From: Candidatus Odinarchaeia archaeon
Lineage (GTDB): Archaea > Asgardarchaeota > Odinarchaeia > Odinarchaeales > Odinarchaeaceae
Length of the DNA stretch: 10,510 nt
Assembly (NCBI GenBank): GCA_029856525.1
Contig: JAHQXC010000047.1
Location: 1-10,510 of the forward strand
Direction: 5' to 3'
Shown here: one piece after another, positions 628-10,459 of the stretch
Layout of the letters: each line of letters begins with the position of its first letter
Numbering within the stretch: the first letter of the stretch is position 1
Position numbers and translations under genes: made by a program
The notes under the pieces: generated by a model
Databases searched by the model: none
Told to the model about the DNA's origin: nothing
Seen by the model: only the letters and a program-made list of their open reading frames with translations

Positions 628-681
628 ATTATAGATGACGCTTAACTTTACTATTATGAATTGAAAGAGGTGTTAATATTA

Positions 682-1752
682 ATGGAAGCAGGATGCGAGT
701 TACAACCTCAGCTTAGTTTTGAAAGCCCCGACTATGTTAGAACAAGTCTAGCCGCGGCTATGACTCTTAAACTTCTCCCAGGTCGTTTCTACAGAGGCGC
801 TAAATTATATTGTATTAACCTATTGCTTACATACTCTGAGGGCTGTGCGGCTAACTGCGCTTACTGCGGTCTTTCAAGAAGCCGCGGCGGTCAATGGGTT
901 GAAAACAGTTTTATCCGAGTTGACTGGCCTACATATCCTTTAACCGAGATCATCGATAGAATGATAAAATATAAGCGGAGTATTAGACGCGTCTGCGTTT
1001 CAATGATTACAAGGCCTAAAGCAGTACAGGACACGATAACCATAGTGAGAAGGATAAGAGATAAACTGGATACCCCGATATCAGCGCTTATCACCCCGAC
1101 TGTGATGAATAGAAGAGATCTCGAAGCACTAAAAGAATCAGGTTGCGATCATATTGGTGTAGCTATCGACGCGGCTACACCTGATCTCTTCGATAAATAT
1201 AGGGGTACCGGTGTTAAAGGCCCTCATAAATGGGATAAATACTGGGAGACTGTTAAACAGGCGGTTGAAGTCTACGGGGACGCGGTTGGAGTTCATTTAA
1301 TAGTAGGATTAGGGGAGACTGAAAAAGATATGATTGAAATAATTCAATACGCTCAAGACATAGGCGCATCCACGCATCTATTCTCATTTTACCCTGAAGA
1401 AAACAGTCAGATGTCTAACTATCAACCTCCACCGATAGAGCAGTATCGTAGAATTCAAATAGCCCGCTATTTAATAAACGAGAAGATTAAAACAATACAT
1501 GACATGAAGTTTACACCTGAGGGTAGACTTGAAGCCGTGAACATCAGCTTAGAGGAGTTTGAAAGAATTGTTGAAAGCGGGATACCTTTTATGACAAGCG
1601 GGTGTCCTGGAGTGAACGGGGAGGTTGCATGTAATAGACCCTACGCGAATGAGAAACCTGGAGAGGTAATTAGAAATTATCCGTTTAAACCAGGTAAAAC
1701 AGATATAAAACTTATAAGAAAACAGTTAAAACTTAAGGTTCAGAGCTGGTAA
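682..1752 (+). CDS. lipS2: Radical SAM protein, biotin-synthase-related family; LipS2-like lipoyl synthase subunit
   Basis: CAANCAYC (844-867) is the radical SAM CxxxCxxC. C-terminal TSGCPGVNGEVACNRP (1594-1641) resembles the TXGCPXC(N/D)RP auxiliary-cluster motif described for LipS2. ATG 682 is preferred over TTG 661 because GAGGTG (667-672) sits 9 nt upstream. Radical SAM call is strong; LipS2 assignment is from motif recall only. Confidence 0.7.
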   Translation: MEAGCELQPQLSFESPDYVRTSLAAAMTLKLLPGRFYRGAKLYCINLLLTYSEGCAANCAYCGLSRSRGGQWVENSFIRVDWPTYPLTEIIDRMIKYKRSIRRVCVSMITRPKAVQDTITIVRRIRDKLDTPISALITPTVMNRRDLEALKESGCDHIGVAIDAATPDLFDKYRGTGVKGPHKWDKYWETVKQAVEVYGDAVGVHLIVGLGETEKDMIEIIQYAQDIGASTHLFSFYPEENSQMSNYQPPPIEQYRRIQIARYLINEKIKTIHDMKFTPEGRLEAVNISLEEFERIVESGIPFMTSGCPGVNGEVACNRPYANEKPGEVIRNYPFKPGKTDIKLIRKQLKLKVQSW

Positions 1753-1753
1753 A

Positions 1754-2848
1754 TTGACGGTTAAAAAATACGATGCAGTTATAATAGGCGCCGGTCCAGC
1801 CGGCTGTGCAGCAGCTTTAAAACTAGCAGGTGAAGGGTTAAACGTAATCATATTAGAGAAAAAAACGCTACCCAGGGTGAAGGTCTGCGCTGGACTATTA
1901 CCGGAAGCTGCAATCAACGTTTTAGAAGAGTATTTAAACTTGAAAATACCTGAAACAGTTTTCGAACACCCTTCAACTGTAGGGCTCGTCTATATACCGC
2001 CTTCAGGTGTTAAAAACGCGGTTTTAAAGTTAAACTATAAGCTATATAATATAAACCGCGCTGTATTCGATAACTGGCTTGCCTCTGAAGCCGGAAATAA
2101 AGGTGTTAGAATCTTTCAAAACATGAGACCTGAAAGAATAATATTTAAGGATAATAGAATAATGTTAAAAACAAGCAGCGGAGTGATTTTTAATACAGGT
2201 TATTTAATAGGCTGCGACGGGGTTAAAAGCTGGGTTAGACGTCAACTACTTAATAAAGACCCTCCAACAGCGCCAGTATATCAGGAAGCATACTCTCTGA
2301 AGAAAGAATATGACGGTTTTGTTAAACCCTATTTTTATATTTTCCTGAACAGTCGAGTATGCAATCTCTACTCTTATATAATAATAAAAGGCGGGAGCGT
2401 GATACTCGGAGTAGGGGATTTCAACAATGGAAGAAATTCGAAGGAGATTATTAGTAAAATGATTAATTTTAAAAAACTTTTAACAGCTGAGATACCAGTG
2501 TTCAAGAAGCTATTAGAGAGTAAACCTTTAAGACAGTTATGGTTTATACCGTTCTTTCCACCTCAAATAGGGGCTAGAAACATTCTACTAGCAGGCGACG
2601 CAGCCGGGTTCGTTAACTCTTTCAGCGGTGAAGGTGTAAGACTTGCAGTTGAAAGCGGTTTTTACGCAGGTGAAGCTGTTAAAAAAAGCATTGAAAAAGG
2701 CGTGGAAGTATTAGAATACTATCGTAAACAGGTTCAACAGTTAATAGATTTCTGTAATAATATGCGTGATTATACTATTTCTCTAACCGAGGAGAAAAGG
2801 GAAAGCTATGTTAAAGAGCTTAAAAACGTAGTGAAAGCTGAGCTTTAA
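1754..2848 (+). CDS. FAD-dependent oxidoreductase, geranylgeranyl reductase-like family (possibly LipT-like)
   Basis: N-terminal GAGPAG dinucleotide-binding motif (1787-1804), KVCAG, RAVFD, GCDG, GDAAG...SGEG motifs typical of the GGR family. TTG start 1 nt after the radical SAM stop codon. Confidence 0.85.
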   Translation: MTVKKYDAVIIGAGPAGCAAALKLAGEGLNVIILEKKTLPRVKVCAGLLPEAAINVLEEYLNLKIPETVFEHPSTVGLVYIPPSGVKNAVLKLNYKLYNINRAVFDNWLASEAGNKGVRIFQNMRPERIIFKDNRIMLKTSSGVIFNTGYLIGCDGVKSWVRRQLLNKDPPTAPVYQEAYSLKKEYDGFVKPYFYIFLNSRVCNLYSYIIIKGGSVILGVGDFNNGRNSKEIISKMINFKKLLTAEIPVFKKLLESKPLRQLWFIPFFPPQIGARNILLAGDAAGFVNSFSGEGVRLAVESGFYAGEAVKKSIEKGVEVLEYYRKQVQQLIDFCNNMRDYTISLTEEKRESYVKELKNVVKAEL

Positions 2849-3070: not shown

Positions 3071-3772
3071 ATGTCTCTCATAGAGAAGTTTAAAGCTTTA
3101 TCATGTGAAACCCGGTATAACATATATAATCTACTGCGACAGCGTCAAATGTCTATTGAAGAAATCGCTAAGCTAACTAATTTGAAACCTATAACAATCC
3201 GCCATCATATAAGCGAGTTAGAGCGGTCGGGTTTGGTCTGTAAAAGATTAAGTAGGCTTAGCTTAGTAGGGCGCCCACGCATTGTTTACGGAGTTAACTC
3301 TGATCTTTTAGAAACACCTTTAACAACAAGGAATTATGCTCTTCTACAGAGAATTTTTTTCACATCTCTCCACGACTTCTTTAAGGAGGCGGGTAAACTT
3401 TTAGAATTCTATAGTTTTATGGGCCGTCAACTAGTTCACACACTTCTATCAGGGTTTAACACTAGTGAATTCGCTGAATGGGGTTTAAAAGATTTTAAAG
3501 AGCGAATTTTCTTAGACCGTTTTCAAGAATACGCGCCGATGCCGGAGCTTGTCGAGGAGAACGAGGATTCTTTTACTATAAGATTATACACCTGCCCTTT
3601 CTTAGAGCATACTCTCCCATTCTTCGAATCTATCTGTAGAATTTTATCAGATATATATGTGGCTGAAATGACGAGGATCATAGGAGTTGTAGATATCTCT
3701 ATTATATGTAGGCGGAGCGTGGATAAACCTTTCTGCGAGTTTAAAGTTTCCTTGAAAAACCGGGCTCTATAA
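3071..3772 (+). CDS. ArsR-type winged-helix transcriptional regulator (COG2345/SufR-like) with Cys-containing C-terminal sensor domain
   Basis: N-terminal ALSCETRYNIYNLL...MSIEEIAKLTNLKPITIRHHISELERSGLV...GRPRIVY is an ArsR-like wHTH; RNY linker; C-terminal TCPF..C..C..C (C175, C189, C213, C222). SD GGGGTG at 3061-3066. Confidence 0.82.
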   Translation: MSLIEKFKALSCETRYNIYNLLRQRQMSIEEIAKLTNLKPITIRHHISELERSGLVCKRLSRLSLVGRPRIVYGVNSDLLETPLTTRNYALLQRIFFTSLHDFFKEAGKLLEFYSFMGRQLVHTLLSGFNTSEFAEWGLKDFKERIFLDRFQEYAPMPELVEENEDSFTIRLYTCPFLEHTLPFFESICRILSDIYVAEMTRIIGVVDISIICRRSVDKPFCEFKVSLKNRAL

Positions 3773-3853: not shown

Positions 3854-6800
3854 ATGCCTATAACTAAGATTATAAAACGTGATGGTAGAGAAGTACCGTT
3901 CGATCAGTCTAAGATAACTAACGCAATATTTAAAGCAATGCAGGCTGTCGGCGAAGGCGACTATCTGTTAGCTCAAAAACTCTCAGATAAGGTTGTTGAA
4001 ATACTTGAAAAATCTTTTAAAACCAGGATCCCTCATGTTGAAGATGTTCAAGATATCGTCGAACTAGTCCTCATAGAAGAGGGGCAGGCTAAAACAGCTA
4101 AAGCTTATATCCTATACCGTCAGAAGAGGAAAGAGCTCCGCGAGGCTAAAATGCTTTTAGGTGTCACAGATGAGCTTAAACTTCCTTTAAACGCTGTTAA
4201 AGTATTAGCTAACAGGTATCTGCGTAAAGATGAAAACGGGCGGGTTATCGAATCTACAGCTCAGCTTTTCAGACGTGTAGCTAAAGCGATAGCTGAAGCT
4301 GATAGAATATACGATAAGGACGCGGATATAAAAGCTGTTGAAGAGAAATTCTATAATTTAATGACTAGCTTCCGTTTTCTACCAAACTCTCCGACTCTTA
4401 TGAACGCAGGCTTAGAGCTCGGTCAACTATCAGCATGCTTCGTGATCCCGATAGAAGACTCTATGGAGAGTATATTCGACGCTGTAAAATACACGGCGTT
4501 AATTCACCGCTCAGGAGGTGGAACAGGCTTCTCGTTTTCAAAGCTTCGACCTAAAGGGGATGTTGTGAAGTCCACAGGCGGAATCGCTTCAGGCCCCCTC
4601 TCCTTCATGAAGGTTTTCGACGCTACAACAGATGTTGTGAAGCAGGGTGGTAAACGCAGAGGCGCTAATATGGGTATACTGAGAGTAGACCACCCTGATA
4701 TTCTCGAATTTATCACAGCTAAGGAACGTAACGATGTTTTAAATAATTTTAATATTTCCGTGGCTATCACAGACGAGTTCATGGAGGCTGTGAAAAACGA
4801 TAAAGAATACCCGTTAATAAACCCTAGAACAGGTAAAGTTGTTAAAACTCTCCCAGCTAGAAAAGTATTCGATTTAATAGTTACAATGGCTTGGAAGAAC
4901 GGGGAGCCTGGAGTTGTTTTCATAGACCGCATAAACCAGTTTAACCCTACCCCGCATATAGGGAAAATAGAGAGCACGAATCCGTGTGTAACCTCAGACA
5001 CATGGATTATGACAGAACGGGGGCCGCTTCAAGTTAAAGATCTCCTGGGTAGAAAATTCAAAGCCGTCGTGAACGGTGAGAGATGGGAGACCTCTGAGGA
5101 GGGATTCTTCTCTAACGGATTTAAGCCAGTTTATAGATTGAAAACTATGGAAGGCTTCGAACTCCGTCTCACAGGAGATCATCCTGTTATGAAATTGGAG
5201 GAAACGGGAAGTCGTAGTGTTGAAGCAAGATGGGTGGCCGCGGAGAATCTAAAACCGGGGGATAGAGTTGTTTTAAACAATCATCGAAACCTTAACGGTT
5301 GGAGAGGAAAATATAGTAGAGGTGAAGGTTATATTATAGGACTGCTTTTAGGAAGCAGATTGCTTGCAAAAAATAATTTAACGCCTACCAAAGAAGGATG
5401 TGAGGGGGATCCGGGAATAACCGGGGTTTTAGCTTTTACATACTCAGGGGCTATCCCTCACAGCTTCAACTTCAACGGATTGGAAACTGGGGACCACGGT
5501 TATCAAATACTTTTTAACCGTTTAGAAAAGCTGGCTGCTAAGCTTAAACTGACGCCTGAAATGGACGCAATCACCCCGGAGATGGAGAAAGCTTCCTCCG
5601 ATTTTTGTACAGGTTTACTTCAAGGATTATTCGATGCAGCAGGCTCAGTGCACGCTGACCCGTCTAAAGGTGTTACCGTAAAATTAACTTTACCCAGCTT
5701 GGAAACCCTGAAGGCTGTTCAGCGTATTCTCTTAAGGCTTGGAGTGTTTTCGAAAATTTGCGTGGAACAGAGAAGCGAATACGGTTCGACGATATTGAAT
5801 GACATGGGTGAGATAGATGAAGGTTCGCGTAAACCTCGGTGTGAATTAACTATCTCCGGTGAAAGCATAGTTTATTTCTATGAGAGGATTAAATTTGGAA
5901 GTCTAGATAAAATGAGGAGGCTCGAAGAAGCTGTAGACTCCTATAGAAAAGAATCCGGCGGCGAGTTTTTCACAGCCACCGTGGATGAAGTAGCTCTAAG
6001 CGGTGTAGAGGAGGTGTTCGATGTTAAAATCCCCGGTGTGAACGCTTTCGACGCGAATGGTTTTTACGTTCATAACTGCGGTGAACAGCCTTTACTGCCT
6101 TTTGAAAGCTGTAATCTAGGGAGTATAAACCTATCTAAATTCGTTAAAGACGGTAAAATCGACTTTGAAGCTTTGAGGGAAACCGTCTGGGATGCCGTTC
6201 ACTTTCTAGATAACGTGATAGACGTTAACAAGTACCCGCTTCCGGAGATAGAGAAGATGACTAAAGGGAATCGTAAGATAGGGTTAGGTGTTATGGGATT
6301 CGCTGACATGTTAATCGAGTTGGGGATACCTTACAATAGCGAAGAAGCCTTACAGGTAGCTGAACAGGTTATGAAATTTATTAACGAGGAGGGTCATAAA
6401 GCTTCAAGAGCTTTAGCTGAGAAGCGTGGGGCGTTCCCGAATTTTAAAGGCAGCGTATACGATCAGAGAGGTGAACCTCCTATTCGAAACGCGACTGTGA
6501 CAACTATCGCTCCAACCGGTAGTATTAGTATCATAGCCGGTTGCAGTAGTGGTATTGAACCTATATTCGCGATAAGCTATATTCGCCGTGTTATGGAGGG
6601 AACTGAGCTTATTGAAATAAACCCTATTTTTGAAAGAATTGCAAGGCAGCGCGGCTTCTACTCTGATGAGCTTATGAAAGCGATCGCTAAACACGGTTCG
6701 ATACAAAGATTTCAGAATATACCTGAAGACGTGCGGCGTATATTCGTTACAGCTCACGATATTGAACCTATATGGCATGTGCGAATGCAAGCTGCTTTCC

Positions 6801-7090
6801 AGAAGTACACGGATAACGCGGTTTCGAAAACAGTTAATCTGCCTTTCAACGCTACACCCCACGACGTTGAGTTGATATTCTTTAAAGCTTATGAACTAGG
6901 CTGTAAAGGTATAACAGTTTACCGGGATAGAAGCCGGGAATCCCAGGTTCTCAACATCGAGCCTTTACCTGATGAAGTTTTTTCGCAAACCCAGAGAAAC
7001 TCAGAGAAATGCCCTACATGCGGCGGTGAACTAGTCAACCAGGAAGGCTGTGTTACATGCCCTAGCTGCGGTTACGGTAGGTGCGGTTAA
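3854..7090 (+). CDS. nrdJ: Class II (adenosylcobalamin-dependent) ribonucleotide reductase with N-terminal ATP-cone; intein-containing precursor (1078 aa, about 714 aa after splicing)
   Basis: ATP-cone ([23 protein letters not shown]), [35 protein letters not shown], split NP|CGEQPL active-site motif, [30 protein letters not shown], and a C-terminal CPTC...[14 protein letters not shown] zinc-ribbon/Cys tail. No NrdB in the window and a cobalamin adenosyltransferase directly downstream. SD GGAGGT at 3843-3848. Confidence 0.95.
4985..6076 (+). mobile_element. Intein (364 aa, residues C378-N741) in the RNR NP|C site, with a degenerate LAGLIDADG homing endonuclease domain
   Basis: Block [11 protein letters not shown], block [10 protein letters not shown] (TxxH), blocks [23 protein letters not shown] followed by C+1. 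Removing 4985-6076 restores [21 protein letters not shown]. Central LAGLIDADG-like helices GLLLGSR and GLFDAAG plus block [10 protein letters not shown]. Confidence 0.96.
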
Positions 7091-7618
7091 ATGAGAAACG
7101 GCGGTGGTAGAGTGATCACCTATTACGGTGACGGGGACGGTAAGACTACAGCGGCTTTAGGGCACGCTGTGAGAGCGGCTGGACAGGATCGGAAGGTTAT
7201 CATCTTTCATTTTCTTAAAGGACGTAAAAATGTAGGCGAATACATGTATTTTCAAAGAAACTGTGATAACATTGAAGTACACTTATGCGGTCGACCTGAA
7301 TTCTTTATTCCCGGAAACGATCCTAAACCTTACATCGAAGACATAGAGAAGTGTATGGCTCAAATAGAGGAGATCATTAAAGATAATAAATGTGACATGC
7401 TCATCTTAGATGAAATTTTATACGCTATAGAATATAATATGGTTTCAACAAGTAAGCTTTTAGAGATACTCAGTAGACGCGGTGACATGCATGTGATTTT
7501 AACAGGCGGTAAAATAACCGATGAAATAAAAGGTATCTCCGATATTATAACTGAAATGAAAGAAATCCACCATCACTATAAACATGACAGGGAGACTATT
7601 GAAGGCTTAGATTATTAA
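7091..7618 (+). CDS. cobA: ATP:cob(I)alamin adenosyltransferase, CobA/BtuR/CobO family
   Basis: YYGDGDGKTTAALGHAVRAAG (canonical YTGNGKGKTTAAxGxAxRA), FLKG...GE, LILDE, VILTG, ITEM...H...GLDY C-terminus. ATG directly follows the nrdJ TAA; AGGTG SD at 7079-7083. Confidence 0.88.
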   Translation: MRNGGGRVITYYGDGDGKTTAALGHAVRAAGQDRKVIIFHFLKGRKNVGEYMYFQRNCDNIEVHLCGRPEFFIPGNDPKPYIEDIEKCMAQIEEIIKDNKCDMLILDEILYAIEYNMVSTSKLLEILSRRGDMHVILTGGKITDEIKGISDIITEMKEIHHHYKHDRETIEGLDY

Positions 7619-10063: not shown

Positions 10064-10459
10064 TTAACTTATAATAGTCCAGGGGTAGCCTCGCCCTGAA
10101 ACTATTATCTCCCCTGTTAAAGAACCTAAAGCAATGATTTGAATACTGTAATTTTCTGTTATCGTTATCCATGGGCTGTTAACTGTTAAAGCTCCTTTTG
10201 AAAGCGCGGAGTAACTCCATATAATATCGCCTGTTGAATTATATAGTCGAATCGTCCATATCGCTGAGCTCCCTGTCACTACTATGTTTAACTGGACCTG
10301 TGTTTGGAGTAGTTGCAGGCTTCCGGTGTTCGAGCGGCTTCCAGCTGTTTCAATATTTAGACTTATCCTAGCCACTTCTCTAGGGTAAGTTAAAGCCAGC
10401 CATCCTCCTACACCGGCTATTATAATAACTAAAACAGCGATCGCCGTTTTCTTACCCAA
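10064..10459 (-). CDS. Hypothetical protein with N-terminal signal/anchor helix and a beta-rich extracellular domain
   Basis: TTG start with AGGTGG SD (complement of 10464-10469) and an upstream TATA-like box; MGKK followed by a hydrophobic stretch (TAIAVLVIIIAGVGGWLAL); does not overlap other genes; converges on adh with an 8-bp gap. Confidence 0.8.
   Translation of the reverse strand: MGKKTAIAVLVIIIAGVGGWLALTYPREVARISLNIETAGSRSNTGSLQLLQTQVQLNIVVTGSSAIWTIRLYNSTGDIIWSYSALSKGALTVNSPWITITENYSIQIIALGSLTGEIIVSGRGYPWTIIS

Follow-up and report, generated by a model that had tools for sequence, protein, structure and literature searches.

A probable half of a second, split LipS1/LipS2-type lipoate-assembly system in an Odinarchaeia-like Asgard archaeon

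What is the gene for a radical S-adenosylmethionine (SAM) protein doing one nucleotide in front of the gene for a flavoprotein that resembles geranylgeranyl reductase (GGR), in a short contig from an archaeon assigned to Candidatus Odinarchaeia? The contig, JAHQXC010000047.1 of assembly GCA_029856525.1, is 10,510 nucleotides long and was analysed whole; it is called here the window, and is contig C79 of a 1.32 Mb genome that is in 127 contigs and 93% complete. An original prediction, made from the letters of the sequence, was that the two genes, ORF A and ORF B, are a lipS2-lipT module of the lipoate-assembly pathway, detached from lipS1 and from the lipoate ligase. The features that led to it, a CxxxCxxC motif, a C-terminal TSGC...CNRP and a GGR-like gene beginning 1 nt past the stop of its predecessor, are all present. 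The answer reached here, to which we attach a probability of roughly 85%, is that the window carries one half of a second LipS1/LipS2-type lipoate-assembly system in an Odinarchaeia-like Asgard archaeon. It goes beyond the original prediction in that the genome has two full LipS1/LipS2 sets, this being the second, and in that an upstream gene of the histone deacetylase (HDAC) family is part of the same conserved block. The products of ORF A and ORF B are referred to below as LipS2' and LipT', and the LipS1 of the same set, encoded elsewhere in the genome, as LipS1'.

On its sequence, ORF A is a LipS2-family radical SAM protein of what is termed here the type-2 subclade. Against the NCBIfam LipS2 model (NF053743) it scores 249.9 bits (E 3.5e-74) over profile positions 2–292 of 292, as compared with 19.3 bits for the LipS1 model, and in a tree in which the LipS1 and LipS2 clades divide at 100% SH-aLRT support it is on the LipS2 side, just as had been foreseen. 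BioB, HydE and PylB outgroups were not included in that tree, and the score with the BioB model (TIGR00433), 41.8 bits for a cut-off of 225, stands in for them. The LipS2 clade itself consists of a canonical archaeal group, which includes another copy from the same genome (on contig C9 and 36% identical to LipS2'), and of the type-2 group (branch support 92–95), where LipS2' is joined by many Asgard sequences (44–60% identity) and by sequences from Actinomycetota, Desulfobacterota and Gammaproteobacteria (43–49%). Orthologues of LipS2' adjoin LipS1' and the lipoate protein ligase (Lpl) in Asgard archaea, Bathyarchaeota, Actinomycetota, Desulfobacterota and Gammaproteobacteria. The AlphaFold2 model of LipS2', which like that of LipT' was built from alignments made in this analysis, has a pLDDT of 87.0 and a barrel like those of HydE, BioB, PylB and LipA; a search with its sequence against solved structures gave nothing at E ≤ 0.001.

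The Thermococcus kodakarensis proteins LipS1 (TK2109) and LipS2 (TK2248), which go with Lpl-N and Lpl-C (PMC9585515), share with the present ones the family, the predicted chemistry and the radical SAM motif. The auxiliary-cluster ligands of T. kodakarensis LipS2, C85, C276 and C279 (PMC9585515), correspond to C105, C308 and C317 of LipS2'. However, the last two are spaced Cx2C in T. kodakarensis and Cx8C in LipS2', the T. kodakarensis-like copy in the Odin genome being the one on C9. The original prediction had drawn attention to this spacing, and it is indeed there, but is it an oddity? C55, C59, C62, C105, C308 and C317 are all invariant in an alignment of 36 LipS2 sequences, and a long spacing in the auxiliary motif (Cx8–10C) is common to the type-2 subclade, bacterial LipS2 included. 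Gammaproteobacterial clusters with the published gene order lipS1-slpl(AB)-lipT-lipS2 served as proxies for the Thioalkalivibrio and Hyphomicrobium references, and in the 13 genomes having them LipS2 is inside the type-2 group (support 95) and reads C-P-G-K...S-A-C, i.e., Cx10C. As these bacterial proteins fall within that group, Cx8C is a signature of the sLpl-type subfamily and no anomaly. In three genomes of the same order as that of the window (G004–G006), basal type-2 LipS2 (loci L059, L061 and L062) has the short Cx2C spacing; the insert of 8–10 residues therefore postdates the split between type 1 and type 2. The GGR-like genes linked to these three are the most divergent members of the lip-linked flavoprotein clade described below.

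If LipS2' is one subunit of a lipoyl synthase, where are the other subunit and the ligase? The partners whose presence the original prediction hinged on, lipS1 genes, lipoate ligases and an H-protein acceptor, were found on searching the genome, and the lip genes form two sets. On contig C9 a canonical lipS2 (336 bits, Cx2C), lplA, lplB and lipS1 (287 bits) make up one strand-wise operon, and the arrangement lipS2-lplA-lplB-lipS1 is called typical for archaea in the literature. On contig C24 the gene for LipS1' is divergent from that for a ligase of 520 aa (L013 4721–6283, − strand) in which LplA and LplB are followed by a C-terminal DUF116 domain where eight Cys and two His are invariant; this fusion is also found in Thor-, Jord-, Prometh- and Bathyarchaeota, Actinomycetota and a Desulfosarcina. 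LipA was not found in the host genome. LipS2' is the missing partner of the second set on C24. After the ligase gene on C24 come a 528-aa B12-binding/MiaB-like radical SAM gene (L013 3038–4624, − strand) and an AIM24 gene. An orthologue of the 528-aa protein (36% identity; L119:4502–5905) is encoded directly upstream of a LipT' orthologue in a Bathyarchaeia metagenome-assembled genome (MAG), and the system may have in the C24 protein a third component of the radical SAM type. The AIM24 and Rieske genes that flank the C24 locus are not conserved at the related loci searched, and the Rieske ferredoxin beside LipS1', considered as an electron carrier, was dropped as it is absent from every other one of those loci.

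Could the separation of the two loci be due to a fragmented assembly? Two closed or near-closed genomes of the same genus, G001 and G002, permitted synteny comparison. In G002 the ligase is at 1,212,409–1,213,965 and LipT'/LipS2' at 1,245,123–1,247,268, 31 kb apart on one replicon, and in G001 the corresponding positions are 81,808–83,364 and 53,305–55,450, 26 kb apart and again on one replicon. The split layout is thus real and genus-wide, and the detachment from lipS1 and ligase envisaged originally is confirmed, with both of them on C24 in the present genome. Other archaea and a Desulfosarcina have a single four-gene operon, lipS2'-lipS1'-lpl(AB)DUF116-lipT'. The block of HDAC, radical SAM and GGR genes recurs in two other genomes of the genus with 84–88% identity for the radical SAM protein and 64–72% for the GGR, the best identities, 88% for LipS2' and 72% for LipT', being to genes of a MAG named 'Candidatus Odinarchaeota archaeon'. 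The placement in Odinarchaeia is also consistent with topoisomerase VI, with Arf-like GTPases and with the genome size of the genus, 1.3–1.4 Mb. Since the block recurs in the genus while the downstream genes of the window are not syntenic (in G001), the pairing of LipS2' with LipT' is not a matter of chance.

Does the flavoprotein keep such company elsewhere? When 40 relatives were searched, the best match to LipT' was on the contig with LipS2', and not more than about 9 kb from it, in 10 Asgard genomes of 6 families; the best matches in relatives have 25–39% identity and 346–367 aa, as against about 400–420 aa for other GGR paralogues. At eight fetched GGR loci outside the Odin genus (L072–L077, L089 and L091) the flavoprotein gene abuts that for Lpl-DUF116. 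An alignment-based scan gave 12 top hits at E ≤ 1e-40 (Desulfosarcina, Thor-, Bathy-, Jord- and Prometh-archaeota, and Altiarchaeales), and 11 of the 12 are linked to lipoate assembly: ten adjoin the ligase, seven of these in complete four-gene operons, and of the other two one is beside an orthologue of the 528-aa radical SAM protein of C24 and one is at a contig edge. Among the weaker GGR hits, 0 of 68 had a lip gene within 6 kb. The LipT' clade has 97–99% support and its members adjoin Lpl-DUF116 or lipS genes, and the other GGR paralogue of the host genome (C125, 406 aa) is in a separate clade. Only in the Odin genus does the flavoprotein follow immediately after LipS2'. On context, then, LipT' does belong to the second lipoate-assembly system. 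A member of the lip-linked clade at L083 (G027:C1:1504927–1505886) is in a genome where only canonical LipS2 was found.

Is LipT' then the same protein as bacterial LipT? In a maximum likelihood (ML) tree of 66 GGR-family sequences, 12 of them gammaproteobacterial LipT, the archaeal and Desulfosarcina lip-linked clade (97%) is apart from the gammaproteobacterial LipT clade (100%). As the two are not sisters in that tree, 'LipT' may, to go by the sequences, be two separate recruitments of GGR-family proteins. However, a joint clade of LipT and LipT' is not rejected in the approximately unbiased (AU) test (delta lnL 4.45, p 0.408), and of the proteins of the Desulfosarcina genome it is the lip-linked GGR that matches gammaproteobacterial LipT best. 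The tree separating the clades, the AU test allowing their union and the Desulfosarcina match being lip-linked together led us to file ORF B as 'works like LipT'. Of the original equation of the flavoprotein with LipT, what stands is its place in a lip-linked clade distinct from the C125 paralogue; orthology to the bacterial protein does not share that standing.

To what would the lipoate be attached? Genes for glycine cleavage (gcvT, gcvP) are present in the genus, and G001 and G002 have two H-proteins. GcvH1, with the classic E-S-V-K-A motif and a pI of 4.7–4.9, is encoded near gcvT. GcvH2, on C96 in the host genome (L015 8511–8939, − strand; L102 and L103 in G002 and G001), reads E-T-G-K-W, has no Cys, is below the GcvH cut-offs and, with a pI of 5.8–6.3, is less acidic than GcvH1. 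It matches an H-protein encoded beside lpl-lipS2' in Desulfatiglandales with 115 bits and GcvH1 with 87 bits. The gene for GcvH2 adjoins a PHP-like TIGR00375 gene. No other lipoyl or biotinyl domains were found in the window genome, and in G001 and G002 only H-protein matched; across 40 Asgard genomes there are 1–8 GcvH-like genes per genome. The dedicated acceptor of the second set is likely to be GcvH2, not GcvH1, and two sets for two carriers would, by analogy, parallel the discrimination between sLpl/LbpA and Lpl/GcvH that has been reported for bacteria.

How might the components work together? LipS2 of T. kodakarensis acts on C8 first and LipS1 then on C6 (PMC9585515). Going by the T. kodakarensis enzyme, the first sulfur would be introduced by LipS2', at C8 of an octanoyl-lysine borne by an H-protein-type carrier, and would be drawn from the auxiliary [4Fe-4S] cluster presumed to be held by C105, C308 and C317, and LipS1', if it resembles its characterised relatives, would then insert the sulfur at C6. 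LipT' is translationally coupled to LipS2', whose TAA stop (1750–1752) is separated by the single base 1753 from the TTG with which LipT' begins at 1754; it would most likely provide the reducing equivalents with which SAM is cleaved or the cluster turned over, possibly by way of the 8-Cys DUF116 domain fused to the second-set ligase. An electron-donor role for LipT is itself only a proposal in the literature (PMC10332631). That DUF116, with its eight invariant Cys, co-travels with LipT' suggests a flavin-to-Fe-S relay from LipT' to DUF116 or the LipS proteins, for which FixC and FixX provide a model by analogy only. FixC, of electron-bifurcating FixABCX (7KOE), is a flavoprotein resembling GGR, and its electrons go to an Fe-S partner, FixX; in contrast, there are no electron-transfer flavoprotein (ETF) or FixX genes near LipT', and the similarity is mainly in the FAD-binding parts. 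A three-chain complex prediction with LipS2', the DUF116 domain and LipT' scored 0.00 without controls, which speaks neither for nor against binding.

Other explanations of the pair differ widely in credibility, and those that would dispense with lipoate altogether fare worst. An older annotation would have made ORF A a biotin synthase, and its fold is like BioB as well as HydE and it does match the BioB model weakly; but the 41.8 bits of that match compare with 250 for the LipS2 model, the genus search for biotinyl- or lipoyl-domain proteins other than H-proteins found none, and the orthologues always accompany a lipoate ligase and LipS1, which contradicts the BioB reading and leaves it with next to no credence. 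Hardly better placed is the notion that ORF B is the lipid geranylgeranyl reductase of the organism, beside a radical SAM gene by accident. It passes the cut-off of the geranylgeranyl-reductase subfamily (TIGR02032) by 0.1 bit (158.9 for 158.8), and the closest folds to its AlphaFold2 model (pLDDT 91.1) are those of the archaeal lipid GGRs of Sulfolobus acidocaldarius (3ATQ/4OPx) and Thermoplasma acidophilum (Ta0516, 3OZ2), at a TM of 0.82–0.83, with which it shares the FAD fingerprint, the Cys motif, RxxFD and GDAAG. However, identity to these enzymes is 20–21%, LipT' has 364 aa to their 397–453, and its neighbourhood is one of lipoate assembly and not of lipid synthesis. The comparison with digeranylgeranylglycerophospholipid (DGGGPL) reductases that the original prediction suggested came out as it had anticipated: LipT' is far under the equivalogs NF041080 (65.3 bits for a cut-off of 580) and NF041160 (38.5 for 780), and its clade is apart from the 406-aa paralogue on C125. 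With linkage to lip genes specific to the LipT' clade, across 5 or more phyla, and in none of the 68 controls, synteny contradicts the idea of a chance neighbour.

More serious is the possibility that LipT' is no electron donor and acts on a substrate of the pathway, as a reductase or oxidase: it might, for instance, reduce an unsaturated C8 acyl precursor, or convert the dithiol and dithiolane forms of the product into each other. LipT' has the full GGR fold, and what keeps this alternative alive is that its clade shows little or no variation in the core motifs KxCxG, RxxFD and GDAAG. GGR-family proteins are without a separate NAD(P)H domain, so that the role of 'NAD(P)H-dependent donor' (PMC10332631) is itself a proposal. 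Against it, the solved structure that matches LipT' best in sequence is that of FixC, an electron-transfer flavoprotein (7KOE chain C, E 1.2e-13; TM 0.75 for the model), and LipT' is some 40–90 aa shorter than lipid GGRs. The latter have an aromatic substrate motif, Y-x-W-x-F-P, and that position reads Y-x-Y-x-I-P-K in LipT'. Many LipS1/LipS2 systems function without LipT (PMC10332631), which suits an accessory supplier of reducing power, and a substrate-acting LipT' is a minority view, though one to be kept in mind. We consider it improbable, and appreciably more so, that the second set has diverged to put sulfur into another acyl chain or onto a non-lipoyl carrier, LipS2' being a paralogue that is no lipoyl synthase. 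This would accommodate the extra conserved neighbours, i.e., HDAC, the 528-aa radical SAM protein and DUF116, as well as two full sets for just two H-type carriers in a genus with no E2 lipoyl domains, and also the scores of LipS2' and LipS1' under their equivalog cut-offs. But bacterial LipS2 of the same subclade, with the long Cys spacing, is in a gene arrangement shown to lipoylate LbpA, the cluster ligands are all conserved in LipS2', and the Lpl(AB) ligase linked to it is complete. The assignment of the window to a second lipoate-assembly system is preferred, and several points have to be set against it. LipS2' is about 20 bits below the NF053743 equivalog cut-off of 270, LipS1' on C24, with 222 bits, is under that of 230, and the lipoyl-synthase function of the archaeal type-2 members is predicted from sequence. 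The catalytic-core motifs of LipT' fit a substrate-reducing enzyme no less well than an electron donor, to judge by the residues themselves, and gammaproteobacterial LipT groups in the ML tree with the C125-type paralogue at 99%, and not with LipT'. GcvH1 is missing from this 93%-complete assembly, and which ligase/synthase pair serves which H-protein is inferred.

What of the HDAC-family gene that is cut by the edge of the window? In G001 and G002 it is complete, with 252–261 aa and catalytic motifs intact (L050:602–1387), and is directly upstream of the LipS2' orthologue, being the first gene of the conserved genus block HDAC-LipS2'-LipT'. Genes of the family are also directly upstream of type-2 clusters in the Thor-like genome G010, in two more archaeal MAGs, at L118 (labelled Thorarchaeota) and L116 (an unclassified uncultured archaeon), and at about 16 gammaproteobacterial loci. 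In a tree of lip-linked HDAC proteins these form three separate groups and not one orthologous clade, which suggests repeated recruitment rather than a single orthologous lineage. The Odin genomes carry two other, full-size HDAC genes. NCBIfam has no family name for the lip-linked HDAC proteins, and no paper was found that ties HDAC-type enzymes or DUF116 to the lipoate-assembly pathway. The HDAC of the block is a candidate octanoyl/lipoyl-lysine deacylase.

How much of this is new? LipS1/LipS2, the sLpl ligase and LipT were described between 2018 and 2023, Asgard archaea included, and so the core identification is a gain in annotation and not a discovery. The pathway, LipT and its Asgard occurrence are already published, as is the return of sLpl-type ligases to Asgard lineages by transfer; the sLpl(AB)-LipS1/S2 pathway has been shown to work in vivo, and the known bacterial gene orders are lipS1-slpl(AB)-lipT-lipS2 in Thioalkalivibrio sp. 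K90mix and lipS1-lipT-lipS2-slpl(AB) in Hyphomicrobium denitrificans (PMC10332631). Genomes with paralogous LipS copies were excluded from the trees of that work (PMC10332631). The Odin set has in common with the bacterial one a fused Lpl(AB), LipS1, LipS2 and a GGR-like flavoprotein, a LipS2 in the same subclade with the long Cx8–10C motif, and the presence alongside it of a further lipoylation route and a further H-type carrier. However, the Odin host is an Asgard archaeon without evidence of sHdr and has the genes over two loci, its ligase has the C-terminal DUF116 with 8 Cys, an HDAC-family gene heads its block, its flavoprotein clade is not sister to gammaproteobacterial LipT by ML (with the joint clade not rejected), and its other route is also LipS1/S2 and not LipA/LipB. 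The pathway, in short, is known, and its configuration here is a variant one: the set is a second, paralogous one, its genes are split between loci, the flavoprotein belongs to a clade of its own, and an HDAC partner that had gone unremarked accompanies it.

The positions of the features in the window are collected in the table. Further downstream, 222 nt after LipT', is a gene for an ArsR/Lrs14-like winged-helix regulator (3071–3772, + strand; 233 aa, the C-terminal ~170 aa being without a family assignment), whose lack of synteny in G001 makes a connection with the lip block improbable. It is followed by a B12-dependent class II ribonucleotide reductase gene with an ATP-cone and a LAGLIDADG intein at about residues 417–741 (3854–7090, + strand), and, with zero spacer after its stop, by a cob(I)alamin adenosyltransferase gene (7091–7618, + strand), a coupling of cofactor and enzyme. 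An ORF of 131 aa (10064–10459, − strand) had no match in Pfam or NCBIfam.

Table. Features of the lip block and its upstream neighbour, numbered from the first nucleotide of the window
Feature	Position	Strand	Evidence
Minimal HDAC-family Zn-deacylase, 3' part, 208 aa, truncated by contig edge	1..627	+	Pfam Hist_deacetyl E 3e-45; HH, DxH, D, GGY motifs
Spacer, 54 nt, with GAGGTG ribosome-binding site 8 nt before the ATG at 682	628..681	+	Direct reading
LipS2' (ORF A), predicted type-2 (sLpl-type) LipS2 radical SAM lipoyl synthase subunit, 356 aa	682..1752	+	NF053743, tree, orthologue operons, AlphaFold2
Radical SAM cluster motif C55-x3-C59-x2-C62	844..867	+	Invariant across 36 aligned LipS2 sequences
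C105, counterpart of T. kodakarensis LipS2 auxiliary-cluster ligand C85	994..996	+	Invariant R-x-C column; ligand role from PMC9585515
Auxiliary-cluster motif T-S-G-C308-(8 residues)-C317-N-R-P	1594..1641	+	C308 and C317 invariant in alignment
LipT' (ORF B), GGR-fold FAD flavoprotein, 364 aa, TTG start	1754..2848	+	TIGR02032, AlphaFold2, clade linked to lipoate-assembly genes
FAD dinucleotide-binding fingerprint I-I-G-A-G-P-A-G (GxGxxG)	1781..1804	+	Pfam FAD_binding_3 and DAO
K43-V-C45-A-G47, GGR-type conserved Cys motif	1880..1894	+	Invariant within LipT' clade (alignments)

What would it mean for these organisms if all the strands were to be drawn together? A joint reading, which is offered tentatively and is rather doubtful as a whole, is that Odinarchaeia and many other Asgard archaea run two non-redundant LipS1/LipS2 systems, each with its own ligase and carrier, and that HDAC-LipS2'-LipT' is the core of the second. 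The minimal HDAC would edit or recycle the carrier, or free its lysine; LipT' and DUF116 would be the long-sought physiological supply of electrons or Fe-S for the sacrificial auxiliary clusters; and the LipT' clade would be an independent recruitment from the GGR family, distinct from bacterial LipT. For annotation, the two genes of the second set would escape the NCBI LipS2 and LipS1 models, falling short by about 20 and 8 bits respectively. For the wider family, a deacylase of the HDAC type precedes these clusters in Odin, in Thor-like archaea and in Gammaproteobacteria, which are three separate lineages, and no paper was found that mentions it. The LipT' clade and the DUF116-fused ligase are always together, which points to a testable route of electron or Fe-S supply, and such a route would address the question of what reduces LipS enzymes in vivo and repairs their clusters. 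For the organism itself, a genome of 1.3–1.4 Mb, the size in this genus, without LipA or E2 lipoyl domains holds two complete LipS1/S2 sets, which apparently serve two H-type carriers, and the genus is a clean natural system for asking how ligase/synthase pairs select their carriers.

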